From positions 1-52,621 of IMG/VR virus record IMGVR_UViG_3300025769_000167: a stretch of DNA of 52,621 nt, one strand, 5' to 3'. The notes beneath the pieces were generated by a model, which saw nothing but the letters and a program-made list of their open reading frames with translations, had not been told where the DNA came from and ran no database searches. Source of the DNA: a virus. Lineage: Duplodnaviria > Caudoviricetes. Below, piece after piece: positions 1,979-24,911 of the stretch. A program made the translations under genes and the position numbers. How positions within the stretch are numbered: position 1 is the first letter of the stretch; every line of letters starts with the position of its first letter.

Positions 1979-2934
1979 TATGCAAACGCTAGTTGACTAA
2001 ATAAAAATGGTGTTGTACCTACAAATACAAATGTAAGTATATCTATAGATGCTGCTGCTGTTGATAATGTTAGTCCTGCACCACCGACAGTCTTTGCAGT
2101 AACATCACTACCACCATTAACGCTTACTGCATCTATGTCCATTGTTCTTGAACCTGTTCCATCTTGTGTTACTACTAAAGTAAATGTTGTTACTCCTGTT
2201 GCAGGTACATTTGTAAAATGCAAGTCATCAACTGCAGTAGCAATAGTTAAAGTACCTGTATTACCAAGTGCTAAATCTATTGCAAGGTCTGTTGCTGATG
2301 TAATAACTTGTGATGTTTCATTATAATCTTTTAATACTGCTGCTGATATTGTTTGGTCAGCACCTGTTACAGCACCTGATAAAGTAACAGCACCTAATGT
2401 TTTATTTGTTAGAGTAGCTGTTTCTGCATCAACATAGTTCTTAACTGCTGCTGTTGTAGGTATCTTTGATTCACTATCATTTGATGTAATAGTTTCTGTT
2501 TGTGTAATAATATCTGCAGGATTAATCATAGCGAAGTCTACTGCACCTGCAGCTATTGTTGTCGCTACATCTTGTGTAGCTGAAGCTAATGTACCTGTAA
2601 CATCTCCTGTTAAAGCTACATCATTTATTCTGTCATGTACATCTTCAAAGTGTTGCTTAACTACTGCGAGTCTAACCTTAGTACCTGATGCGTGTGTTGG
2701 ACCACTATTATCACCATCTAAATCTCTGTTAATAGTAGCAGCAGCGTGGTCTGTTCCTGTTGACCAAAAAACTATTTCTCTGCTGTCACTATCAGGGTCT
2801 ATTACAAAATATGCAGGGCTATCTACGCCTGGGTTATCTGCTAAATTCATTGTACCTGTTGGTCCGCCCGCACTTAACTGTGCAGCTAATGTAGTTTCAA
2901 AAGCGTTTACTATATTAGATTCTTGTGCTGTCAT
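1978..2934 (-). CDS. Tail fibre (proximal) protein, copy A
   Basis: 318 aa, Thr/Ala-rich; IPTTAAVKNYVD, TLTNKTL and QDGTGSRT fibre motifs; homolog at 44788..45747. Confidence 0.7.
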   Translation of the reverse strand: MTAQESNIVNAFETTLAAQLSAGGPTGTMNLADNPGVDSPAYFVIDPDSDSREIVFWSTGTDHAAATINRDLDGDNSGPTHASGTKVRLAVVKQHFEDVHDRINDVALTGDVTGTLASATQDVATTIAAGAVDFAMINPADIITQTETITSNDSESKIPTTAAVKNYVDAETATLTNKTLGAVTLSGAVTGADQTISAAVLKDYNETSQVITSATDLAIDLALGNTGTLTIATAVDDLHFTNVPATGVTTFTLVVTQDGTGSRTMDIDAVSVNGGSDVTAKTVGGAGLTLSTAAASIDILTFVFVGTTPFLFSQLAFA

Positions 2935-2958
2935 TCTTCTCCATTATATACTATTTTT

Positions 2959-4881
2959 TTATCCAAATCTCATTATTCCAAAACCATTTACTCCAGGTAC
3001 ATTACCTGATGTAACTTGGCTAAAGGTCTCTTGTCTTGTACCTCTGACAGTTAGTATAGCATATTGTGTGACGCTGCCAACATTTGGATTACTTTGTATT
3101 GGGTAGCTTATCTTTTCTACAACACCTCTAACTATCTCAGCAGGGTCATATAGTTCTAAAGTTATAGCAGCTCCTTCTTTTTCTTTTAAAGATTGATAAA
3201 TAGTTTCACCTAAATTCTTAACAAGGATTGGTTTTCTGTATGGTCTCTCTACTCTATCAGATATGTTTACTGGTATCTGTATAACTATAAGCTCTGGTCT
3301 TGCTAATGCTCTTACTTTAAATGCTTTAAACTTAGGAGAGTTAATTTGATTAGGAGATTTTAAAACAACTTTTGCTACAACATATCTTGCTACCCTTTGT
3401 AGCTGTACTGCTTCTTCACCTACTCCTGATAAAACGTTAACTTCTAAATCCCAAGTACTATCAGTACTATCGTTAATAGATTCGTACTTATTTGATAAAT
3501 GTAATTCTACAGTATTGCTATCTGATAACTCTTCCACCTCAAGACTTGCTTCTACAAACTGTTTATTTTCCGCAGTGAAGAAATCTGCAGGGGGTGCTAT
3601 AAGAAAACCTTCCTGTTCATATATAGATGTTTGGTTATATACACCATCTGAACTTACAGTAAACAAAAACTTTTCATTAAGACTTACTATATTATGCACA
3701 GCTCCACCTGCACTAGCTTTATAATACCTAGCTATACCTGATGTAGGTAGATAATATCTCCATAGAAAACTTGTACTAGCTGTTTCTTTTACACCTATGT
3801 AAACACTATCCCTAGTAGTAAACAAAGCGTTAGGTGAGTTATCTTGACTGTCTACGTCCCATTGTTTTATTAATTGATTTTGTGTCAAGATATATAAATC
3901 ATCTGCGACTGTTAGAGTTGCACGGTATAATCTTCCTATGACTTTAGTACCTGTCTGTACTTCTTTAGTTCCATAAAAGACTATACCCTGTGACTCTACT
4001 ATGCAAGTAGGTTGCTCTCCTGATATTTCTGTCTGCCCCTTAGCAGTAAATGTTCCAGCAACATCTTTGATTGAATAGATTCTACCATCAGTAGCAGTTG
4101 CTAATACTACAGCTCCTGCATCTGTTACATCTGTAAAGCTTTGTCCTGAAGGCAATGTTATTATTGCAGAGCCAACAGTTGTAGCTCCATCATAGGAATG
4201 TATTGAACTCCCTATAGTAACTAAGAACTGACCTTTTACTGAAAATATTTTATCATAAATAGCAGCAGACATTTTTTGAGTAGAGGTGCCACCACTTGTC
4301 AGTGTTTCTATTTCACCTGCTGAACCATTGTTAGCTGTTATATAAAGTAAGTCACCATGTGCAGCTAAACCTTTTATCTGATAACCTGCAGTTAAACCTT
4401 CAGTAACTGGACTCCAGTTAGCACCACCATCATCTGACTTGTATAATGTTACATCATCAGATACATATATCCTTGTACCTACTACTGTCATATGATTTAC
4501 AGCAGAAGATAATGCTTGACCTTTTTCTGTAGTGTGTAGTAACTGTACATTGTATCCCTTACCTAAGTCTGTATTAAAAACATCTACACCTTGGCTATCC
4601 CAGAATCTTCTTACATCATCTGGTTTACCATTAGCCTTATGTGCTGAGTCTAAGTTAGAACCACCACTAAAATCATTCCTAGAATATATACGTCCTAAGT
4701 TAGATGTAAAGTCTTCAGGGTTTTGTCTGACGTTAACTCCAGCATCCTGGACTTCTGATGACTGTATAGTCATCTCCCTACCACTACCTATAGCACTTCT
4801 ATATAATTGATTGTCTATACGAAAGTCATAACCTTTTCTTTTAGGGTTATTTTCTTCTGCTTGCGTAGTAAGTCTAGGCAT
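2959..4881 (-). CDS. Tail nozzle/tubular-B-like beta-propeller protein, copy A
   Basis: 640 aa beta-rich, BNR-like SDDGGANW box, sits after the adaptor; homolog at 45772..47694. Confidence 0.6.
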   Translation of the reverse strand: MPRLTTQAEENNPKRKGYDFRIDNQLYRSAIGSGREMTIQSSEVQDAGVNVRQNPEDFTSNLGRIYSRNDFSGGSNLDSAHKANGKPDDVRRFWDSQGVDVFNTDLGKGYNVQLLHTTEKGQALSSAVNHMTVVGTRIYVSDDVTLYKSDDGGANWSPVTEGLTAGYQIKGLAAHGDLLYITANNGSAGEIETLTSGGTSTQKMSAAIYDKIFSVKGQFLVTIGSSIHSYDGATTVGSAIITLPSGQSFTDVTDAGAVVLATATDGRIYSIKDVAGTFTAKGQTEISGEQPTCIVESQGIVFYGTKEVQTGTKVIGRLYRATLTVADDLYILTQNQLIKQWDVDSQDNSPNALFTTRDSVYIGVKETASTSFLWRYYLPTSGIARYYKASAGGAVHNIVSLNEKFLFTVSSDGVYNQTSIYEQEGFLIAPPADFFTAENKQFVEASLEVEELSDSNTVELHLSNKYESINDSTDSTWDLEVNVLSGVGEEAVQLQRVARYVVAKVVLKSPNQINSPKFKAFKVRALARPELIVIQIPVNISDRVERPYRKPILVKNLGETIYQSLKEKEGAAITLELYDPAEIVRGVVEKISYPIQSNPNVGSVTQYAILTVRGTRQETFSQVTSGNVPGVNGFGIMRFG

Positions 4882-5873
4882 TAACTGTATGCTATCTTAT
4901 TAACAGTTACTGGTTCAGGGTACCTAGCTCTTAAATCCTTTCGTGCTTGTGTTATCAAAGCAGTTTGGTACTGGAGTAAAGAGTTTCTTATTGTTGATGC
5001 AGAGTTAACAGGAAATGTATTTACACTCATTTGGTCTGTTATATAGTCTGCTGTAGCTGTTGGTATATCTCTACCTGATATTAGTTGAGCTGCTACTCCT
5101 GTCATAATAATAGGTTCGTACTCGTCCTCTAAACCTACTGTAGCTAGAGTATCATCTTCTTGTGTAGGAGTTACAAACTTCTTTTTAAATGTAACAAATA
5201 CAGTATGACCTGAAGCAACACTGTAAAACTGAATTGCTTTAACATTATCAGGACCATTGTTACTATAAGTAATTGTTTGAGAGGCACCGTCATCATCTGT
5301 GTATGTAAAAGGATTTGGTAAATCTATTAACTCACATGAAACACCAGAGAATACTGTACCTGTTTCATCTGAGCCTGCAGAAAAGTTTGTGTTTTGTGAT
5401 ATAGATTTAATTGGTGCTATCAAATGATTATCAGTAGAACCACTAAGAGGTACGTAACCTACCTTAGCTACTATTGATTTAGTTTCTACTGCAAATAAAG
5501 TTGGATATAAATTTTTAATCTGGTCACACACTGCATCAAAAACATTCTTACGTGGAAAGACAGGAGAAATTTTAATTACTTTATCTGCAACATGTATAGC
5601 TGCTGTAGTACCTAATACTCCTCTATCAACAGTTACTTTATTGTTTACAGTATCTAAAGATTTACACCTCATTAATTCTTGTTCACACTCAATGATAGTT
5701 CCTGCATCCATTGCATCTTCTTCTTCTTGTGTTAACAAATCTCCATTAAAAATTATTTCAGTTACTGATGCATTAACCTCAGTCTTTAATGTTGTGTAAG
5801 ATTGTAAATCATCCATAGGTTCTAAGTATTCCCTATAGACTCTATTAACTAAGTCACTTATTTTTTGACTCAT
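4881..5873 (-). CDS. Head-tail adaptor-like virion protein, copy A
   Basis: 330 aa; position after capsid genes; RGVLGTTAAIH motif; homolog at 47694..48698. Confidence 0.55.
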   Translation of the reverse strand: MSQKISDLVNRVYREYLEPMDDLQSYTTLKTEVNASVTEIIFNGDLLTQEEEDAMDAGTIIECEQELMRCKSLDTVNNKVTVDRGVLGTTAAIHVADKVIKISPVFPRKNVFDAVCDQIKNLYPTLFAVETKSIVAKVGYVPLSGSTDNHLIAPIKSISQNTNFSAGSDETGTVFSGVSCELIDLPNPFTYTDDDGASQTITYSNNGPDNVKAIQFYSVASGHTVFVTFKKKFVTPTQEDDTLATVGLEDEYEPIIMTGVAAQLISGRDIPTATADYITDQMSVNTFPVNSASTIRNSLLQYQTALITQARKDLRARYPEPVTVNKIAYS

Positions 5874-6058
5874 TACGCTGCTCCTTCTTCAACTAATGAT
5901 GTAGCAAAGATTGCTTGACCAAAGCTACCTAATGCAAACCATCCATCATTGGCTGTATTGTTTGGATTAACAATAGGGAACGAAGGTTCTAATGGTTGGT
6001 CAGGAATACTTTCTATATTAAGATTTCTTCCCTCTTTTAATATTAAGAGCATACTCAT
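5873..6058 (-). CDS. Small virion-module protein, copy A
   Basis: 61 aa; AGGAG SD; MSMLLILKEGR start shared with 48698..48892. Confidence 0.65.
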   Translation of the reverse strand: MSMLLILKEGRNLNIESIPDQPLEPSFPIVNPNNTANDGWFALGSFGQAIFATSLVEEGAA

Positions 6059-6067
6059 AAGTATCTC

Positions 6068-6397
6068 CTAACTGTGTCTAAAGTGTAATACTATTTCTCT
6101 ATCTGCTGCTTCGGTACCATTAGATGTAACTCTAATGTATCCATTGCTAGCAAAAGCCCAGCCACTAGGGTCTACTCTTACTACATCTCCTGCTGAAACA
6201 GTGTAACTTACTTCAGTACCATCTGTTTCTTTTACGTCTAACCATGTAGTATTGTCCATTGAAAAATCAAATGTGATTGCAGAACCTGTCATAGCTGCAG
6301 GAAACTGTACACCACAGAGAAGCATTCCATCTGTTTGTACACCTAAGCTGTCATTGTTATCTGCTGAAACATCTATTAAAGCTAATTTACTTATCAT
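6068..6397 (-). CDS. Virion protein (possible head decoration protein), copy A
   Basis: 109 aa beta-rich, directly after the capsid gene; near-identical homolog at 48901..49233. Confidence 0.6.
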   Translation of the reverse strand: MISKLALIDVSADNNDSLGVQTDGMLLCGVQFPAAMTGSAITFDFSMDNTTWLDVKETDGTEVSYTVSAGDVVRVDPSGWAFASNGYIRVTSNGTEAADREIVLHFRHS

Positions 6398-6415
6398 ATC
6401 TTCCTTACTATAGCA

Positions 6416-6453
6416 GAAGAAAAGAGTGGAGGTGGAGTTCCACTCTAATCTTC
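6416..6453 (-). terminator. Stem-loop after capsid gene (terminator/attenuator)
   Basis: GAAGA-TT-AGAGTGGA..TCCACTCT-TT-TCTTC; compensatory changes in copy B. Confidence 0.7.
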
Positions 6454-6462
6454 AATATTAAA

Positions 6463-7587
6463 TTATGCTACTGACTGAATCTTGCAGTGATATGAAGGAG
6501 GTCCGAACTCGAATCCCATCTCCATATAAATTGCTTTACCAATTCTAGCGTTGGCATCTTGGTCTATGTCACGAACAAACATTGTTCCATATCCTGGGAT
6601 ATTTGTAAACACTGTTTGAATGTAAGCTAAGTCCAAGATAAAAGCAGAACCTGCAGGCATGATATCAGGGTCAATAACCATTAGTCCTATTGAACCAAAT
6701 GGTGTAATGATTGTATCGATATCGACACCAGCAACATTTCTATCTCTAGGAATAATTGTTCCTGCTATGTCAACTGTACCTTTAACAAGTTCATTGTTAA
6801 GGTCTAGTAATTGCTTTGGACTCACGCAGAGTACTGGTTGAGACATTGGTGCATGGTTGTCATACATTCTCTTTAAAGCACCTGAAATGGTTTTAAAGGA
6901 TATGACTTGTGATGCTCCAGTTCCGTCACCATCTACGTCATTGTAGTAACAGTTACCACCTAATGGGTTAACTGCTGCAGCATTGTTGGCGTTCTTGTTT
7001 ATGGTAATCCATACATCAAGACCATACATTTCTCTAGTTCCTGAACCAGGTGATGTGTTTGCACCATCTGAGAAAGAACCATTGAATGCAAACCACTCAA
7101 CTTCTCTTGCTACTTTTTCCATTGCTTTTTCCATTTGGAAAGCAAATTCGTCTGCCACTGGGCTACCACCAAAAAGAGCCAATTTATCACCAGCTGTGTT
7201 GCCACCTGTTCCATTGGAAAAGTTTGCAGCGTTTGCTGATAGGTCGAAAGGATTTTGGTTTTGGGTAGATGCCAAAGCGGTATATGTCATTTGTACACCC
7301 TTGTGGAAAATCTGAGTTACATATGTGTATGCAGCTCTATCTCTTCCAAGATATTCTGTTGGTGCATTACCTTCTTGTGCCTTAGTTGGTTCTGAAGAAA
7401 CGGTTGCATTATCTTCTACTTGGACTTGCCAAAATGTAGAGTTCAATACTTTACCGCCATTCAAACCACCAACTGCACTAAGCAAAGGTGTTCTTTGACC
7501 ACCGACTTTAAACAATTCACCAGTGAAGTTATTAATCTGTTGGGCATAAATAGGTGCTGTTGCACTTAATCCACTTATACTTGCCAT
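6463..7587 (-). CDS. Major capsid protein (SU10/DUF5309-like, HK97 fold), copy A
   Basis: 374 aa; TPLLS, TQIFHKGVQMTYTA and TPFGSI motifs; follows scaffold gene. Confidence 0.8.
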   Translation of the reverse strand: MASISGLSATAPIYAQQINNFTGELFKVGGQRTPLLSAVGGLNGGKVLNSTFWQVQVEDNATVSSEPTKAQEGNAPTEYLGRDRAAYTYVTQIFHKGVQMTYTALASTQNQNPFDLSANAANFSNGTGGNTAGDKLALFGGSPVADEFAFQMEKAMEKVAREVEWFAFNGSFSDGANTSPGSGTREMYGLDVWITINKNANNAAAVNPLGGNCYYNDVDGDGTGASQVISFKTISGALKRMYDNHAPMSQPVLCVSPKQLLDLNNELVKGTVDIAGTIIPRDRNVAGVDIDTIITPFGSIGLMVIDPDIMPAGSAFILDLAYIQTVFTNIPGYGTMFVRDIDQDANARIGKAIYMEMGFEFGPPSYHCKIQSVA

Positions 7588-7612
7588 TGTTATCTTCTCC
7601 TATTATAAATTA

Positions 7613-8080
7613 TTACTTGTCTTCTTTAAGAGTTTCCATCATACGCAACTTAGCGTTAATAGAATCTCCTACTTTTGTGTTGGAATCTGTTACAAATTTC
7701 ATAAACTCATCTCCTATGTTTTGTGGATTTGAATTTACACCAAGTTTATTGAGCTGCTCTACACGTGATTGAGCTTCTACTACATTAGAAGTAAGGTTGT
7801 TGCTAGGCTGTTCAGAACTACTAACTTCTCCAAACTCTTGAGCAACAAAGTCTTTGACTCCATCAACAGTAACATCACCTTCATAGAGTTTTACCACAGC
7901 TTTACCTATGCCCTTCTCTGCATTAAGTCCTAATGAACTTAACGCTGAGTTCATAGCATCGGCTTTAAACTGTCTGTTTTCAGCTTTAAGCTTTTTAAAC
8001 TCTTCTCTAAGTTGTTTGATATTATCTGTTGGTTCGTCCACTATTGTAGTTTCCTCAACTTGTTCTGTATTTTTTTCCAT
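7613..8080 (-). CDS. Capsid scaffolding protein, copy A (start re-assigned to MEKNTE, 155 aa)
   Basis: GGAG SD before ATG at 8080; acidic N-terminus plus coiled coil; directly upstream of MCP; start aligns with copy B. Confidence 0.7.
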   Translation of the reverse strand: MEKNTEQVEETTIVDEPTDNIKQLREEFKKLKAENRQFKADAMNSALSSLGLNAEKGIGKAVVKLYEGDVTVDGVKDFVAQEFGEVSSSEQPSNNLTSNVVEAQSRVEQLNKLGVNSNPQNIGDEFMKFVTDSNTKVGDSINAKLRMMETLKEDK

Positions 8081-8240
8081 ATTTTTTCTCCATCTTTTCT
8101 CTAGCATATTAAATTCCATAACATTAATCGCTAGGTAATTAAAAGGAATTTTCACAAGGGTTTGCGAATAACACATAACGCACCTCGGCAGCGTTATCGA
8201 ATTGTGTGTGACCCTATTCTAAGCGGAACTCACCACGCTA
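8081..8240 (-). ncRNA. Structured cis-regulatory RNA leader of scaffold/capsid operon, copy A
   Basis: Several stems covary with the copy B leader; loop CTAGC can pair with downstream GCTAG (pseudoknot). Confidence 0.6.
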
Positions 8241-8247
8241 CTATATA

Positions 8248-8275
8248 TAGTACTACTCTTTAATACTCTGTCAAG
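8248..8275 (-). promoter_or_regulatory. Sigma70-like promoter TTGACA-16-TACTAT for capsid operon
   Basis: TTGACA lies in the last codons of the upstream gene and is conserved in copy B. Confidence 0.5.
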
Positions 8276-17971: not shown

Positions 17972-20900
17972 TGAATACTCCTCCGAGGTTCTCTTCCTCT
18001 ATTTCTAATCTAAAAATATCATACCACAAATAGTAGAAGTCAGGGTGTTGCATCATAAGTTGTTTAGATAATGTACTTAAATACTGTCTTGCTTCTGCAG
18101 CTTCTGACCTACTTAAACTAGCATTAGCTCCAAACTGTGAACGTATAGATTGAAGTACATTTTGTCTAGCTACTAAGTATTTCATTGCACCTTGAATAGA
18201 AGGTAAGTTCTCTATAGCAACTTGGCTACCATCAGGCATCTTAACTGTTTTACCACTTTCATTTGCTAACAAAGCTTGAAACTGTGCTATCTTAGCATCT
18301 ATATCTAATGATTTAGCTACTGATGATGTAGTTCCATAACCAACGAATTTCTTTTGTAAGTCTAATTTAGTTAAATACAACTGTTCAAATTTCTTATCCA
18401 TTGGTACAGATGCATAGACATTAGTATCTAAAAGTAATCTTCTAGCATTTTCATAAGCTAAGGAACCTTGTGCTTGTCTTATAGAACGTTTAAATTCAAC
18501 GTCAGTTAAATCTACTCTTCTTCCTTCTGTAAAAGCATCAGCCCATTGTTGATAATCAAATTCCCCTAAAGGACTGTCAGGGAATAAGTAATAAGATATG
18601 TCAGGATACTTGTCCATAATCTCTTTGTTTGCTTTATAAAAATATCCACCTTCTGTTGTATAAGCTGTTGCTTGTATCTTTTTAGATTTAGAAACAAGTA
18701 ATGCACTAGGGTCAAATCCAAATGTTCTTATAAACTCAGCAGTAGCTGTAACTCTGTCTCCATCTACACCAGCTAACATTTGATAATATGCGTCAGAAAA
18801 TAAAGTATCTGCAAAAAACTTATGTTGTGGGTCATTTGCTTTAGCTTCCCATGGGTCTAGAAATGCTGCACCATCTGGTCCAACTTCATATTCATAATTA
18901 ACTACAGCAGGTGAAGGAGCAACGAATGCTATAAACGCTTGGTATTTTAACATTGAGTTAGCTAACTTACGTGCTTGTTCTAAACTTTTTTGTTCTGCTT
19001 CTGGAGTACTGTCATCATAAATACCTGAAACAAACATAGCCCTTTGTACTTCTTTAACTCTGTTTGCGTAAGCTCTTTGTAGTTGTGGACTTCCACTACC
19101 ACTTGTAGAACGTAATCTATTTAACCATGTTGGCAAAGCTGCCTCTACATAATAACTTGGGTCTAAAGGTGAGTACTGTGGTCTACCATAAGGAAACAAC
19201 GCTTGGTCAATTCCTTTAGTAGAAGGTAATACTGCTGATGCAGGTAGTGATACTAATGGTCCTAGACCAGGTACTACTGAACCAGCTACCATGTTTAATC
19301 CGCTTGCATAGCCTTCTATTCTAGCATTAACACCAGGAGCATCTATATCTTGAGCACCTGTAATAGGATTAGTAATTGCATTTTCTGGACTAGGATTTCC
19401 AAGTTGTCTATCCAAACTGTTGTTTAACCCGAAACCAGGTGCATTATACATTTCCTCTCCACTTTGTGGGTCAGTAGTAAAGAAGCCTTCATCATCTTCC
19501 TCACCAAATATGCTAGGCTTTCTTGCACCTTCAACACCTCGTTGTAGTTTTCTACCAAATAATGTTTTTTGATTCTTTAATAACCTTGTCCACGTACCAG
19601 CAATTTCTAAATAAACTTCTGCGAAAGGAAAAGCAAGTCTTAACATATCAGAGATAGCATGTCTTTTGTTTAAGTCATATAGTAATGATTGTGTTTCTTT
19701 TAAGGAATAAGCTTTAGCTAATGTATCTATCTGCTCTAAATCATCTATACCTATTTGTTTACTAACGTCAGCAAACCCCATGTTTTCTAAATTTTTAATA
19801 TACTTGTTACCACTACCACCTTTAGGTAAACCTCTCATACTTTTTTTAGCAGCTCTCATAATTTCTCTTCTAGCTACTTCATCCATATTGGCGTATGCAC
19901 TTTCTATAAATCTCCAGTAGTACTGTCTAAATGCAGGCGACCTTGACAACTCATTAGTAGATGCACCCATTAAAGTAGAGAACAATGTTTCTAGAACTCT
20001 GTTGTATTGACTTACTCTGTCTCCATCCATATCATATCTTGAAGCTTTAACTTTAAAAGTATTGTCTATCATGTCGCCTTTAAAGTTTTTGAGCCAAGTA
20101 CTATACGAATTAAATTCACTTCTTGTCATGTTCCTATTAAAGTTTCTTTCTACATAATCATTAGCTTTCTTACTAAAGATAGAAATTTTATTAGAAGCAC
20201 GGTCATCTAAAGCATTTATAGAGATATGTTCTATTAACTCTTTGTCCCCTGCATTTTTAATTACATAGTCTATTGGATTCTTTATTTCCAAAACATTTGG
20301 GTCTGAAGTATTTATAAATCGTTTAGTACCATTAGGTAGTATCTCGTATGCTTCGTATTTACCACCAGTTTTAAGATGTATACGTGCAACTATAGAATCA
20401 ACGTACGAATCTGAATAAGCTTTGTTTTTATTAATTAAGTCTTTTAGATATCTACCTTCCTCAGTAGAGTTACCAACATAAGCTTTACGCCATTTTGACA
20501 AGTCTCCATTCCAGAAAGATTGTTTAACTGCATCTACTGACTCTTTATATTTTATAGGATTTTTAACTGGGTCTATATTTATCTTTGCTAATAAAGGAGC
20601 TATAGGGTCATCAGCTAGCTGTAACAACTCTGAGGTCCAGCTACTGTAAAAACCTGCTGCTTCTTTATTCTTTGTTATAAAACCTCTACTCCTTCTAGGG
20701 TCCATACCTAACATCACACCATTATTTGTCTGTGACATGGCTTCTTGATGAAAGAAACTTTTTTCCATAGTCTCATCAAATATGTCTGTTCCACCTCTAC
20801 CATAATTTTCAGTTAACCAATCTCTACTCTTTTCTCTTTGAGTCATAAACAGTTGTCTATTTCTTTGTGGACTTCTACCAAATATCCAAGCAAAAGCAGA

Positions 20901-23900
20901 AACAGGATGCGTAAACACATTGTCTAGTCCTTCTGCCCACATTCTAATTTGCTCTTCTCCTACGACCCTTGTAACCCAAGCTGGACGCAATAGGATAGAA
21001 GGTTTCCAAAGCATCTGCATATATCCATCACCAATCAAAGAAACCATACCATCTGTAATTTGTGCTATGTCATCACCATCTGTATTAAGTTTTACATTTA
21101 CTCTTGTCTTTCTTACTAACCTAGATATAGATTCAGCCATGTTTCTTTCTGCACCTTTTACTTCTAATTTAGCTAAGTCAGTAATCGGTTTAGATAATAA
21201 TTTATCGTAGGCTTCATCTGTTATGTTTCTACTTCTACCAGTTAATCTAAGGTGTAAATCTCTCATAGGTCTAAATACACGTAAGAACAATCTAGCATCA
21301 GGCATTGGTATATAACCTTCATCCCAATACTCAGATAACAAGTGTGCTGTAGCTCTAGGTCTATTAACAGTTTTAAGACTTCTACCTGAAGTTGTTTTAG
21401 TAAACTCTTCATAGATAGCATTGATTACTTCATCACTGCTTTCATCAGTAGGTACTTTACGTATTTGTTCTAAATTTTCTTCCAATACAGTTTTTAATTT
21501 ACCTAAAGTTACTCTTTGATTTTTACTTTGGTAATATAATAAATCTTCCATTATATTTTTTTGTAATGCTTTTTGTACATTGTCTATATCTGAACTACCT
21601 ACAACGTTTAATTTCTTTACACGATTTCTATAAATAAACTCTTGCATTTCTTTTATTTGTTTCTTTGAAGTAGTTTTAGATAAATCAATAACTATGTGTG
21701 GTTTGTTACCTTGATATGCACCTGTCTTTAAAGTACCACGTACTCCTAAGTCTGCATTGTCTAGATACCCTTTAATTGATTTTAAGTTTTTAGATGTAGT
21801 ACCTGAATAAAATATAATAGTTCCATCAGATTCTTCAATGTTTCTTTTAACAACAGATGCTAAATCTTCTTTAGGGTTTATTGAACCCCAATCTTTATTC
21901 CAATAATCAGGGTCATATACATCTTTGCTTTCTAATATTTCATTAGCTTTCTTAAAAGAAGGTACAACTTCTGATATTTCACCATCTAATTTAACAATAT
22001 TTTGTGCAATTCTTTTTCTATCATTAATAAGATTTTGTTTAACTATGCTAAGTGAAGGACCAGAAGAAACTTTAATTACATCTTGTACTGACTCTTGTTC
22101 AGTTCCTTTTTCTATTGCACCATCTTTGCCTTTGCGGAAATCTCTACTTCTATATCTTGTAGTTCTTTGTATTTCTTTATTAACTTGATTTAATGCATCT
22201 TCTTTTAATTTGTTTAAACCAATAACAATTTCTGCATCTTCCATTTCATCAGTACCATAATTTTTACGGTACCAATCTTTATTTACTTTATTAGGTGCAT
22301 ACTGTGCTTTAACTCTAGCTAATTGTGCGTCAAGGTTCTCTATAGCTTTCTCTATAGTATTCATTACTTTTTTAGAATCTTCTATAGTTTGTATTTTATT
22401 TTGTACTTGTAATCTTGTTTTCTTAGGTAATGAGTTTATTTCTTCTTGACTACCACCTAAAGCTTCGTCTCTAAGATTGCTATATTCTTTCTGTGCGGTT
22501 AATTCATCTACAGCTTTACCATCATCTAAGTTAAGTTCTTTCATTCTTGGTGATTGGTTGTCGTATCTAGCTCCCTTAGTCACTTCAAAATCAAGTAACT
22601 TAAAAGCTCTTTTCTCTGTCTGCACTAGGTTAAACAATTCTTTATTAGTCATACCAGTTTTAGACAAAATCATTTCTAACTGTGTAGCTTTCTGTGGATT
22701 AGTAAATACATCCATAGGTATGCTTGTGACACCTTTCACTCTTAAATATGTATTCTGATATCTATAAACTTTATTTGTAACTTTGCCTTTAAAGAACTTA
22801 AAGCCTTCTGCTGTATCTACAAATGCAGTAACTGTGCCATCTGCTATCTCTTTAGTTTTTTCAAAGAAGTAAGGTCCATATTTTTCTGATAAGTCAAATA
22901 CATTCTCAGGGTCAGATAAAGTACCATCTGGTATAGTGTATCCTTTAGAAACTTTACCACCTGTAGCAACACCTATTTCTTCAGCTATATCTAATGCATT
23001 ACGTTCTGCACCTTCATAAAATCCTGATGATATCTCATCTACTAATATCCTAGTTTCTACAGCAGTAGGGTCGTTTGATATCTCTTTAACTTGTGCGACT
23101 ATATCTTCTATTTCTTTTGTAACGACTGTTGTGTCGCCTTTAAATTTTGCTAATACTTTTTCAATAACTGTAATTGTGTCGTCATCAGTTAATATTTCAG
23201 AAAATTCTTCTTTCATCATCTTAGGTATTTGTTCAAATTTAGAACCAGGGAACCACTCAAGTTCACCTAACTCATTAACAAAGTATCTATGTGTCTCGTC
23301 TACACTTGCCATCCATCGTTTAATACCTTTCATTAATTGTGGAGGTAAATCTATAGCTTCAAACTTTTGTCCAATATGACCAAGTACATCATTCCAAATA
23401 TCTAACACGTCTCCCATATTTTGTAATGATTGTGCTTCATCAGGATTTAATATTTGATTTTCAGCTAGTTCTGCTAATTTCTGTAATGCAGGTTCAGCAA
23501 CATCATCATCTACTTTTGCCCACTTCATCCATTGTTTAAAATCAAAAAAGGATTGGTTTAAATCTTTAACATTTAATTTTGGTACAGGAAATTCTGCAAA
23601 TATTCTACCTAATGCACTATCAGCTTGTGATTTACGAACTGCACCCATAAACCCTACTGCTTCTCCAAATTCCCCACCAACTAATCTACCTGCTGCACTA
23701 GAAACAGAACCTCTTAGTGCTAATGAATTAGGGTCTAGTCTTTTAAATTTAACAGCAGTTTCTATTGCTGGTATTAATAAATCAGTAACTTCTTGTGGTG
23801 AGTTAGCTTTCATTAAATTTTTATGCAAGGCAGCATCACCTTGATTTTTTAATAAACGACCAACAGTGTCAAAGTTATCAGCTAATGCTATTTGTTCTAC

Positions 23901-24911
23901 AATTTTTCTACCACCTTTTGTAGCAGTCAAATATTCTGTAGCAGAAGGAACGTGTATAGTTTTACGTACAGCATTATCTATAATGCCTGCACTTTTTAAA
24001 ACATCAGCTTGTGATAATGACCTAACAGCTTTACCTGCTTTGTTTAGGTAACTACCAACTAATATTGATGGGTCAGCTACTAAAGTAAAAGCACCGTCAA
24101 TAATTCCTGACATAATATCGTAACCTTTTGTTCCTGGTTCAAATACAGTAGCTGTTAATGGTGCTGCTGGTGTTAATTTACTTGTACCAAATCTAGTTTG
24201 TATGGTAAGACTTTCGTCACGTTCTCTTTCGTTATTAGTAATATCTTGACCGTAATAAGTTTGTATTATTTTTTTAGCTTCACCTTGGTCTACACCTCTA
24301 CCTACTAATTCTTTATACACATCTGTATCTTCAGCTAATGTAGAGTTAGGAAAGTATCCTTCACCTAAGTTAACCTTTTTACCTGCTGACAAATTCTGTA
24401 ATGCTGTTCTACCTACAGAAGGTCCTAATATATCTCTTACTTGTCCAAGCTCATTACGTGCATCATTACTAATTAAAAGCTGTAGTGATGCACCTAATAT
24501 TCCTTGACTGTCTCTATACTTCTTTTGGTTTAAATATTTTTGATAAGCTAGTACAGGTTTTTTAACTATTTCATCTTGCACAGAATCAAATGCTGTGAAC
24601 GCAGTTCTTATAGTTCCTCTACCTACAGACTTTACTCTATCCCACCAAGTCTTTTCAGAGTCAAGCCATCGTTCAACTATAGTTCCTATTTCAGGAGATT
24701 GTGCTGTTAAGTTCATTAAAGATGCACCGACTAATACATCTTTTGGTAAATAAAAATGTTCTCTAACTAAACCTTGTAGATTGGTAGCAGTCTGTGGTGC
24801 AGACTCAATCATACCTTGAATTACTTTAGCTTGGTCTATTCTTGAATTTTGTTGTGTTTCTTCTATTTCATCTTGTACGGGAGATTGCCACCACCATCTT
24901 ATTTCAGCCAT
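17964..24911 (-). CDS. Large internal virion/ejection protein with split cpYpsA-like SLOG domain
   Basis: 2315 aa in structural operon; EISSGFYEGAERNALDIAEEIGVATGGKVSKG and RNIEESDGTIIF..KPHIVIDL..KKLNVVG motifs. Confidence 0.65.
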   Translation of the reverse strand: MAEIRWWWQSPVQDEIEETQQNSRIDQAKVIQGMIESAPQTATNLQGLVREHFYLPKDVLVGASLMNLTAQSPEIGTIVERWLDSEKTWWDRVKSVGRGTIRTAFTAFDSVQDEIVKKPVLAYQKYLNQKKYRDSQGILGASLQLLISNDARNELGQVRDILGPSVGRTALQNLSAGKKVNLGEGYFPNSTLAEDTDVYKELVGRGVDQGEAKKIIQTYYGQDITNNERERDESLTIQTRFGTSKLTPAAPLTATVFEPGTKGYDIMSGIIDGAFTLVADPSILVGSYLNKAGKAVRSLSQADVLKSAGIIDNAVRKTIHVPSATEYLTATKGGRKIVEQIALADNFDTVGRLLKNQGDAALHKNLMKANSPQEVTDLLIPAIETAVKFKRLDPNSLALRGSVSSAAGRLVGGEFGEAVGFMGAVRKSQADSALGRIFAEFPVPKLNVKDLNQSFFDFKQWMKWAKVDDDVAEPALQKLAELAENQILNPDEAQSLQNMGDVLDIWNDVLGHIGQKFEAIDLPPQLMKGIKRWMASVDETHRYFVNELGELEWFPGSKFEQIPKMMKEEFSEILTDDDTITVIEKVLAKFKGDTTVVTKEIEDIVAQVKEISNDPTAVETRILVDEISSGFYEGAERNALDIAEEIGVATGGKVSKGYTIPDGTLSDPENVFDLSEKYGPYFFEKTKEIADGTVTAFVDTAEGFKFFKGKVTNKVYRYQNTYLRVKGVTSIPMDVFTNPQKATQLEMILSKTGMTNKELFNLVQTEKRAFKLLDFEVTKGARYDNQSPRMKELNLDDGKAVDELTAQKEYSNLRDEALGGSQEEINSLPKKTRLQVQNKIQTIEDSKKVMNTIEKAIENLDAQLARVKAQYAPNKVNKDWYRKNYGTDEMEDAEIVIGLNKLKEDALNQVNKEIQRTTRYRSRDFRKGKDGAIEKGTEQESVQDVIKVSSGPSLSIVKQNLINDRKRIAQNIVKLDGEISEVVPSFKKANEILESKDVYDPDYWNKDWGSINPKEDLASVVKRNIEESDGTIIFYSGTTSKNLKSIKGYLDNADLGVRGTLKTGAYQGNKPHIVIDLSKTTSKKQIKEMQEFIYRNRVKKLNVVGSSDIDNVQKALQKNIMEDLLYYQSKNQRVTLGKLKTVLEENLEQIRKVPTDESSDEVINAIYEEFTKTTSGRSLKTVNRPRATAHLLSEYWDEGYIPMPDARLFLRVFRPMRDLHLRLTGRSRNITDEAYDKLLSKPITDLAKLEVKGAERNMAESISRLVRKTRVNVKLNTDGDDIAQITDGMVSLIGDGYMQMLWKPSILLRPAWVTRVVGEEQIRMWAEGLDNVFTHPVSAFAWIFGRSPQRNRQLFMTQREKSRDWLTENYGRGGTDIFDETMEKSFFHQEAMSQTNNGVMLGMDPRRSRGFITKNKEAAGFYSSWTSELLQLADDPIAPLLAKINIDPVKNPIKYKESVDAVKQSFWNGDLSKWRKAYVGNSTEEGRYLKDLINKNKAYSDSYVDSIVARIHLKTGGKYEAYEILPNGTKRFINTSDPNVLEIKNPIDYVIKNAGDKELIEHISINALDDRASNKISIFSKKANDYVERNFNRNMTRSEFNSYSTWLKNFKGDMIDNTFKVKASRYDMDGDRVSQYNRVLETLFSTLMGASTNELSRSPAFRQYYWRFIESAYANMDEVARREIMRAAKKSMRGLPKGGSGNKYIKNLENMGFADVSKQIGIDDLEQIDTLAKAYSLKETQSLLYDLNKRHAISDMLRLAFPFAEVYLEIAGTWTRLLKNQKTLFGRKLQRGVEGARKPSIFGEEDDEGFFTTDPQSGEEMYNAPGFGLNNSLDRQLGNPSPENAITNPITGAQDIDAPGVNARIEGYASGLNMVAGSVVPGLGPLVSLPASAVLPSTKGIDQALFPYGRPQYSPLDPSYYVEAALPTWLNRLRSTSGSGSPQLQRAYANRVKEVQRAMFVSGIYDDSTPEAEQKSLEQARKLANSMLKYQAFIAFVAPSPAVVNYEYEVGPDGAAFLDPWEAKANDPQHKFFADTLFSDAYYQMLAGVDGDRVTATAEFIRTFGFDPSALLVSKSKKIQATAYTTEGGYFYKANKEIMDKYPDISYYLFPDSPLGEFDYQQWADAFTEGRRVDLTDVEFKRSIRQAQGSLAYENARRLLLDTNVYASVPMDKKFEQLYLTKLDLQKKFVGYGTTSSVAKSLDIDAKIAQFQALLANESGKTVKMPDGSQVAIENLPSIQGAMKYLVARQNVLQSIRSQFGANASLSRSEAAEARQYLSTLSKQLMMQHPDFYYLWYDIFRLEIEEENLGGVFSG

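Follow-up and report, generated by a model that had tools for sequence, protein, structure and literature searches.

A Chain of Tandem H-Type Pseudoknots Makes up the 5′ Leader of the Putative Scaffold and Major Capsid Genes in a Family of Marine Phages

Introduction

Pseudoknotted translational operators belong to the textbook inventory of gene control elements, but they are few and mostly built from a single pseudoknot. In the alpha-operon (S4) operator and in the preQ1-II and SAM-II riboswitches, the pseudoknot is located at the initiation region of the messenger RNA (mRNA) and the Shine-Dalgarno sequence and/or the AUG lie inside it. Arrays of tandem pseudoknots are part of the transfer-messenger RNA (tmRNA) and of the 3′ untranslated region (3′ UTR) of tobacco mosaic virus (TMV). 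In Escherichia coli, a 5′-terminal stem-loop reportedly stabilises the mRNA that carries it (work of Emory, Bouvet and Belasco and of Bouvet and Belasco, both of 1992). The present report deals with a leader found in the IMG/VR virus record IMGVR_UViG_3300025769_000167, the whole of which (52,621 bases, 35.4% G+C, from an uncultured marine phage) is hereafter called the window. This leader, located on the minus strand ahead of a putative scaffold gene and the major capsid gene, is a real folded RNA that consists of three consecutive H-type pseudoknots, the first stems of which are named P1, P2 and P3.

Among the described systems closest to this leader, the operator of the T4 gene 32 comprises one pseudoknot, about 67 nucleotides (nt) ahead of the start, and then an A+U-rich tract that is unstructured and along which gp32 spreads (PMC3014915). 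The same paper mentions the pseudoknot operator of S15 (rpsO). The intergenic internal ribosome entry site (IRES) of dicistroviruses is termed "tandem pseudoknots" (10.1101/2024.04.17.590008). Finally, a catalogue published in 2023 lists 8,495 candidate structured RNAs (DNAVirus_X) from the intergenic regions of IMG/VR, with lengths of 29-151 nt (mean 67 nt); 12 of them lie ahead of gp32 genes, and another, DNAVirus_5306, precedes a gene with a "Phage-scaffold" domain (PMC10690425).

Architecture of the Leader

The structural module of the phage is present twice in the window, at positions 2006-8204 and 44816-51037, with 80.4% identity. Owing to this doubling, two copies of the leader, A and B, were available to the first-pass annotation, which had been made from the letters alone. 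All of the pairing elements it listed, namely P1, P2, P3, the inner TAAT(T)/(G)ATTA stem, the loop CTAGC and the downstream GCTAG, occur at the minus-strand coordinates it had given in both copies (Table 1). The GCTAG strand does precede the GGAG, at a measured distance of 9 nt in both copies instead of the approximately 8 nt first estimated. Similarly, the single pseudoknot initially proposed, CTAGC/GCTAG, is a real one; the array as a whole contains three, since the loops of P1 and P2 also form pseudoknots. In each of them the hairpin loop pairs with a strand located just 3′ of its own hairpin, the loop strand itself being immediately adjacent to the 3′ arm of the stem, so that the feature which defines the H-type class, a loop-to-3′-strand pairing with support for both stems, is found throughout.

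Single-sequence folding of the two copies, compared to 200 shuffled sequences, gave z-scores of -0.25 and -1.20, with 85 and 28 shuffles folding equally well. These energies are uninformative, and nested folding is blind to pseudoknots. By themselves, the two copies carry little weight, and the evidence comes from larger alignments.

Covariation across Homologous Leaders

Homologues were gathered without any reference to the RNA, by a capsid-protein scan of IMG/VR in which 144 stretches matched and 80 loci were kept. A gap upstream of the scaffold gene was obtained for 76 of the 80 loci (L004, L020 and L063 lack the region and L065 begins at the capsid gene), which, together with the two copies of the window, resulted in 78 leaders, 69 of them distinct; later scans added a few loci and, subsequently, a sister clade of 78 loci. 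Depending on their type, the leaders were distributed into four groups. Group 1, the type of the window, comprises 34 loci and the two window copies (alignment A2, 36 rows, 34 distinct), and group 2 corresponds to alignment A3 (33 rows). Group 3 consists of L043, L073 and L084, which enter no alignment and no count. Group 4, the sister clade, is represented by alignment A5, with 62 distinct rows out of 75 extracted leaders; L186, L226 and L247 yielded no leader, L231 and L240 were dropped upon failure of the -10 pattern, and L089, being the same stretch as L170, belongs to this group. Alignment A4 combines groups 1 and 2 in 68 rows (65 distinct) and leaves out L036, which reads like window copy B. 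Scans of IMG/VR with exact cores retrieved 86 stretches for group 1, 98 for group 2 and 52 for group 4. As controls, the 3′ partners were slid along the alignment, and each alignment was shuffled 500 times. As the shuffles ignore relatedness, more weight is given to the slid controls and to the counts of compensated pairs.

The first-pass annotation had proposed that the leader is selected for its structure and that a larger alignment should reveal covariation, and both expectations are borne out by the four alignments. In group 1 (A2; 37 pairs in 7 helices), 94.6% of the cells are paired vs 33-43% upon sliding, and 16 pairs changed on both sides vs 1-7. Group 2 (A3; 38 pairs in 7 helices) gave 93.5% vs 36-46%, with 11 pairs changed on both sides vs 0-5, and group 4 (A5; 51 pairs in 9 helices) gave 97.8% vs 31-41%, with 24 such pairs vs 3-7. 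For the P1 core, P2 and the P2-loop pairing shared by groups 1 and 2 (A4; 15 pairs in 3 helices), the corresponding values are 99.3% vs 33-47% and 12 pairs vs 3-8. Three measures, i.e., the percentage paired, the covariation score and the count of cells with a change on both sides, were matched by none of the 500 shuffles in any of the four alignments. The number of pairs changed on both sides performs less well against the shuffles, being equalled by 0, 17, 125 and 0 of 500 in A2, A3, A4 and A5, and the number of further pair types was equalled by 9, 496, 3 and 23 of 500, in the same order.

Compensatory changes were found in every kind of helix and affect all eight pairs of P2 in group 1. 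When RNAalifold was applied to the joint alignment of groups 1 and 2 (A4) with no structure supplied, it returned the P1 core and P2, with 9 compensatory pairs out of 10. Cells with a G-U pair outnumber those with an A-C mismatch (286 vs 53), which identifies the folded strand as the sense RNA. Only the AGGG/ACC(C)T stem, which had been thought to enclose P2, failed: it is paired in 58.9% of the cells, which does not surpass its slid controls (69% at +1), and it was also rejected as a competitor for the strand that pairs with the P2 loop.

Loop Pairings of the Individual Pseudoknots

The pairings between loops and downstream strands, on which the pseudoknots depend, were followed one by one. 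In group 1 the paired fraction is 92-100%, and compensated columns number one in pseudoknot 3 plus two to three across pseudoknots 1 and 2; in group 4 the paired fraction is 98-100%. For pseudoknot 1 of group 2, the first five pairs are kept in 23 of 23 haplotypes and both pairs past a one-base bulge in 21 of 23, the pair past the bulge being found as U-A, A-U, C-G and G-C. The P2-loop pairing occurs in all 65 distinct rows of A4, and three of its five pairs differ on both sides between the two groups (CAAGG/CCUUG vs CUACU/AGUAG). Pseudoknot 3 of group 2 shows 5-7 contiguous pairs in 20 of 20 haplotypes (33 sequences), with at least five versions of the duplex, an A-rich crossing loop of 8-10 nt and a pairing that stops 4-5 nt before the Shine-Dalgarno sequence.

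The CTAGC/GCTAG pairing of pseudoknot 3 in group 1 is invariant in A2 except in L028, where both partners changed. An independent test consisted of scanning IMG/VR for the loop context with either A or G, blind to the partner. Among the 86 stretches retrieved, 78 display the A-U combination (including one whose flank was missed by the pattern and whose partner reads the same), seven display G-C, none is discordant, and one stretch is too short to be read. This result upholds the H-type pseudoknot that had been suspected beside the ribosome-binding site. The seven G-C stretches fall in two sublineages of one clade and probably derive from a single evolutionary event.

A Modular Family of Leaders

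The number of modules differs among the groups. In group 4, the leader contains four tandem pseudoknots, the extra one being inserted between pseudoknot 2 and the last one. The last pairing of this group, CUAUG/CAUAG, covaries to CACGG/CCGUG and CACAG/CUGUG, and ends 0-1 nt before the GGAGG. At the equivalent site, between pseudoknot 2 and the last pseudoknot, four leaders of group 2 (L030, L034, L044 and L059) contain an optional small GNRA hairpin with a GUAA loop, as read by eye. In group 3, also by eye only, pseudoknot 2 is kept together with a last pseudoknot that touches the Shine-Dalgarno sequence. The leaders L066 and L072 are hybrids, which resemble group 4 in their 5′ half and group 1 in their 3′ half. 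Within clades, loops and linkers are almost invariant.

Pseudoknots 2 and 4 of the group 4 loci L170-L246 share look-alike loops (GCCUAC.. and GCCUAU.., e.g., in L223:298-504). This likeness hints at a module duplication.

The type of leader tracks the type of scaffold and not that of the capsid. Identity of the capsid protein to that of the window amounts to 81-100% (median 88%) in group 1 and 77-89% (median 86%) in group 2, while the corresponding values for the scaffold are 47-97% (median 70%) and 27-42% (median 32%). A mosaicism is visible across L001-L080, with an exchange boundary between the scaffold and capsid genes.

Promoter and Transcripts

The arrangement TTGACA-16-TACTAT (8274-8247, 10 of 12 positions) is the best sigma-70-like site between 6000 and 9500, and groups 2 and 4 exhibit TTGCA/TATAAT-type sites at the equivalent place. 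In all 131 aligned rows, the first paired base follows the end of the -10 hexamer at a distance of 5-11 nt (mostly 7-9), from which it follows that the transcript would begin with pseudoknot 1, a point that the first-pass annotation had not raised. Promoter and protein end overlap in both copies: the letters of the -35 hexamer belong to the conserved final codons (Gly-Leu-Thr-Glu) of the upstream open reading frame (ORF), at 8263-8274 and 51097-51108.

The leader is present in marine metatranscriptome libraries. At least 20 sequencing runs from 11 studies contain the stretch, among the matches listed, and 11 of them are recorded as RNA; contigs including the leader sequence occur in three of the four RNA libraries examined. 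This evidence consists of assembled contigs, in which molecule ends are not readable, and RNA libraries may contain DNA. A contig of 1,729 nt from RNA library X1 (record 4), identical to the window (0 differences), spans 6513-8239 and ends at the A that opens P1, a single contig end that gives a hint of the transcript start. The same library offers no contig between 8240 and 9252, a kind of gap that proves nothing, and a contig of library X11 stops within the leader at 8185.

Genomic Setting

The unit to which the leader belongs reads, along the minus strand, promoter, leader, putative scaffold gene, major capsid gene and terminator-like hairpin (Table 1).

Table 1. Features of the scaffold-capsid unit in the two copies of the window.
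Feature	Positions	Strand	Basis or remark
370-amino acid (aa) ORF upstream of the leader	8260-9372	-	PHROG of unknown function
-35 hexamer TTGACA, within the last codons of the 370-aa ORF	8269..8274	-	10 of 12 with -10
-10 hexamer TACTAT	8247..8252	-	
Whole 5′ leader, copy A, 159 nt	8081..8239	-	predicted +1 A8239 to the base before ATG
Pseudoknot 1, copy A: stem AGCG/CGCT (8239-8236 with 8225-8222); loop GTGA (8233-8230) with TCAC (8211-8208)	8208..8239	-	group 1 alignment
Pseudoknot 2, copy A: stem P2 8197-8191 with 8181-8175; loop CGAGG (8187-8183) with CCTTG (8159-8155)	8155..8197	-	covariation, RNAalifold
Pseudoknot 3, copy A: outer AATTCC/GGAATT, inner TAATT/GATTA; loop CTAGC (8134-8130) with GCTAG (8105-8101)	8101..8150	-	
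Shine-Dalgarno GGAG, copy A	8088..8091	-	in no helix; last pseudoknot strand 9 nt upstream
Putative scaffold gene, 155 aa, start ATG 8080	7613..8080	-	position, synteny, AlphaFold model
Major capsid protein gene	6463..7587	-	Pfam SU10_MCP, E 3.5e-43
Terminator-like hairpin with T-run, directly past the capsid gene	6423..6446	-	
-10 hexamer TATACT, copy B, preceded by TGc	51082..51087	-	TTGACA at 51108-51103, 15-nt spacer (by eye)
Whole 5′ leader, copy B	50917..51075	-	
Pseudoknot 1, copy B: AGTGCC/GGCACT; loop GCAG with CTGC	51037..51075	-	
Pseudoknot 2, copy B: GATAGCAC/GTGTTGTC; loop CAAGG with CCTTG	50989..51031	-	
Pseudoknot 3, copy B: AAATCCC/GGGATT, inner TAATT/GATTA; loop CTAGC with GCTAG	50936..50986	-	
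Shine-Dalgarno GGAG, copy B	50923..50926	-	
Putative scaffold gene, copy B	50437..50916	-	
Major capsid gene, copy B	49299..50417	-	

The 155-aa protein encoded directly downstream of the leader matches no named family, its PHROG match being of unknown function, and a profile search revealed no relative in the PDB. The AlphaFold model is made entirely of helices with no compact fold and is of low confidence (pLDDT 63.6, pTM 0.25). In Mycobacterium phage Mendokysei, which is among the nearest cultured relatives with respect to the capsid (29.8% identity), the gene at the corresponding place is annotated as a scaffold. It is named a putative scaffold because of this helical model and of this shared place; the assignment is based on position, on a low-confidence helical fold and on synteny with an actinophage.

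The start codon used is the ATG that follows the GGAG, which is kept in both copies, while the ORF start listed at 8176 is lost in copy B. An N-terminal extension or an upstream reading frame was considered and rejected: the ATG at 8176 and that within TATATGCTAGAG shift frame or meet a stop between the copies, and both are missing from groups 2 and 4. The AUG at 8106-8108, in TATATGCTAGAG, overlaps the 3′ strand of pseudoknot 3 and does not vary within group 1; its reading frame is not conserved, as it joins that of the scaffold in some members of the group and meets a stop in others, e.g., in copy B.

With respect to the doubled module, the record exceeds the length of related contigs (approximately 40-44 kilobases), and IMGVR_UViG_3300020468_000009 exhibits the same doubled pattern. 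Rather than a true repeat, the doubling probably reflects two related strains that were fused end to end during assembly. Elsewhere in the window, an ORF of 2,315 aa (17964-24911, minus strand) contains a circularly permuted YpsA SLOG domain at residues 1014-1106 (PF12694, E 2.9e-11) and is otherwise devoid of matches, and an ORF of 1,515 aa (10790-15337) has no match at all.

Host Hints and Cultured Relatives

No tRNA was found in the window, and neither WhiB nor any other host-telling domain in 23 ORFs. Among 185,579 species genomes, the sole match is L248 (PBPX01000045.1), a 58-kilobase contig from a metagenome-assembled genome labelled Actinomycetota, which carries the same module with a group 1-type leader; the binning of such genomes is weak evidence of a host. 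A tblastn search of the capsid protein against GenBank phage records retrieved only relatives of at most 30% identity, mostly actinophages. Taken together, the contig and the capsid relatives give a weak hint of an actinobacterial host.

Mendokysei exhibits no comparable leader in the 69 nt that precede its scaffold gene. This gap contains a GC-rich hairpin followed by a T-run, which by eye resemble a terminator. In Propionibacterium phage Doucette, the capsid of which is related, a gap of 258 nt (L250:852-1109) opens with a terminator-like hairpin ahead of a scaffold-like gene.

Possible Function of the Leader

The position of the ribosome site relative to the helices is central to any functional interpretation. 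The Shine-Dalgarno sequences (GGAG, GGAC, GGAGG) and the AUG lie outside all covarying helices in A2, A3 and A5, so that models of simple masking are inapplicable. Over all groups, about 0-9 nt separate the end of the last pseudoknot from the Shine-Dalgarno sequence, with a spacing that differs between groups from 0-1 nt (group 4) to 3-9 nt. When only nested folding is allowed, the median probability that the Shine-Dalgarno sequence is unpaired reaches 0.27, 0.62 and 0.30 for groups 1, 2 and 4, and it becomes 0.58, 0.66 and 0.64 when the pseudoknots are imposed.

The reading we favour, with a probability of roughly 45%, is that of a cis-acting 5′ leader of the late scaffold-capsid mRNA, which would protect the 5′ end and keep the ribosome site open. 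Pseudoknot 1, located at or within a few bases of the +1, would leave no single-stranded 5′ tail and might thus hinder the enzymes that attack 5′ ends. The chain of pseudoknots would tie up nearly the whole leader, with the Shine-Dalgarno sequence and the AUG staying single-stranded beside a rigid helix, and the open site could support a strong and steady translation of the two proteins needed in the greatest amounts. The last pseudoknot, near the ribosome site, may double as a docking or control point.

Several points weigh against this interpretation. A single 5′ hairpin suffices for mRNA stability, and three or four pseudoknots with near-invariant loops suggest a more specific partner. The gain in unpaired probability is model-dependent and, for group 2, slight. 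The predicted transcript start at 8239 is deduced from the promoter geometry and one contig end, and a contig from a related strain (X7 record 20, 35 differences) crosses the promoter up to 8445. Moreover, 5′ protection would depend on the set of ribonucleases of the host.

An alternative that goes back to the first-pass annotation is an autogenous operator, in which unassembled scaffold or capsid protein would bind the array, most likely at its last pseudoknot, and block or trap the 30S subunit, thereby coupling synthesis to assembly. The scaffold of phage P22 is said to be autoregulated and would offer a precedent. The proximity of the last pseudoknot to the Shine-Dalgarno sequence in all groups would suit such an operator, as would the loops and linkers, which within clades are as constant as those of a protein-binding site would be. 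The association of leader type with scaffold type rather than capsid type also points to it, but the leader adjoins the scaffold gene and linkage alone accounts for their travelling together; in addition, the Shine-Dalgarno sequence and the AUG take part in no helix. Even with the analogy of the pseudoknot operator of T4 gene 32 (PMC3014915), this possibility is judged somewhat unlikely.

A bolder proposal, which we hold to be rather unlikely, would make the chain of pseudoknots a new kind of assembly-coupled controller of translation in prokaryotes, docking the 30S subunit beside the canonical Shine-Dalgarno sequence in an IRES-like manner and allowing free scaffold or capsid protein to throttle the synthesis of both head proteins. 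It would derive from duplicated modules gained or lost by phage lineages, which gives three pseudoknots, four, or three with an added GNRA hairpin.

Docking could also operate by itself, the array binding the 30S platform or the S1 protein to raise initiation, or offering a standby site. Pseudoknots have reportedly emerged from in-vitro selection against S1 and 30S subunits, and the 30S platform is known as a docking place of structured mRNAs. Here, the array adjoins a canonical Shine-Dalgarno sequence, its crossing loops are A-rich, and in group 4 the 0-1 nt left between the last strand and the GGAGG would permit a stacking of the two helices. Such an enhancer should nevertheless be regarded as unlikely, the spacing to the Shine-Dalgarno sequence varying by group (0-1 nt vs 3-9 nt) and the effect depending on the properties of the host S1.

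It is improbable that the leader acts as a ligand- or temperature-sensing switch with a last pseudoknot that forms conditionally. An H-type pseudoknot beside the ribosome site is indeed the architecture of several riboswitch classes, and nested-only folds show segments of the leader competing for the Shine-Dalgarno sequence, but that sequence is in no covarying helix, no conserved anti-Shine-Dalgarno strand was seen, no Rfam match was obtained at any threshold tried, and the downstream genes are structural, not metabolic. Finally, a DNA-level element (operator palindromes, promoter features) or a chance complementarity with no RNA fold, for which the CTAGC/GCTAG inverted repeat as a possible site for a protein dimer and the unremarkable single-sequence folding energies could be invoked, is already disfavoured and very improbable in view of covariation across 37-51 pairs per group alignment with slid controls at 31-47% paired, of the 286 to 53 ratio of G-U to A-C cells, and of interleaved helices that palindromes do not explain.

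Comparison with Known Systems

No described family could be assigned to the leader, as had been anticipated by the first-pass annotation. Rfam 15 gave no match in the whole window at gathering scores, the best hit under permissive conditions being L10_leader (13.4 bits vs a gathering score of 44, E = 5.1), and no match at E <= 0.1 in 8 related loci. Leaders of groups 1, 2 and 4 found no similar DNA by blastn among 50,697 GenBank phage records, and the literature searched on tandem pseudoknots in phage leaders and on structured capsid or scaffold leaders describes no such leader. The DNAVirus_X catalogue deals with the same type of object from the same source collection and may contain fragments of the leader; two 16-base leader cores had no match in the supplements of PMC10690425 other than its alignment archives.

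A similar succession of three pseudoknots, set immediately before a capsid reading frame, is that of the dicistrovirus IRES. The latter, however, acts on eukaryotic ribosomes, mimics a tRNA and dispenses with a Shine-Dalgarno sequence and an AUG, whereas both are present and canonical here. Neither this IRES nor the arrays of tmRNA and TMV display any sequence or Rfam similarity to the leader. The rpsO and S4 operators and the preQ1-II and SAM-II riboswitches similarly place an H-type pseudoknot at a bacterial-type initiation region, and differ from the leader by its Shine-Dalgarno sequence and AUG being excluded from every helix (A2, A3, A5). With the 5′ stabilisers of the ompA and papA type, the leader would have in common a base pairing that begins at or within a few bases of the predicted 5′ end; theirs are simple hairpins, in contrast to a pseudoknot followed by more pseudoknots, with a presumed stabilising effect.

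The whole leader, of 160-190 nt, is thus a chain of three or four covariation-supported pseudoknots ahead of the head-protein genes of marine phages. It offers a defined RNA for the old question of how phages set the amount and the ratio of scaffold and capsid proteins, and adds a compact natural multi-pseudoknot fold for structural work.

By its behaviour, the closest described system is the T4 gene 32 operator, likewise the 5′ leader of a phage mRNA for an abundant protein, in which an H-type pseudoknot precedes the ribosome site (PMC3014915). The present leader nevertheless differs from it in the features compared: three or four contiguous pseudoknots fill the leader, 0-9 nt, in place of the A+U-rich tract, separate them from the Shine-Dalgarno sequence, and the genes downstream encode a helical putative scaffold of 155 aa and then the capsid protein. 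Compared to these systems, the leader may be viewed as a multi-pseudoknot version of a phage leader operator or stabiliser.

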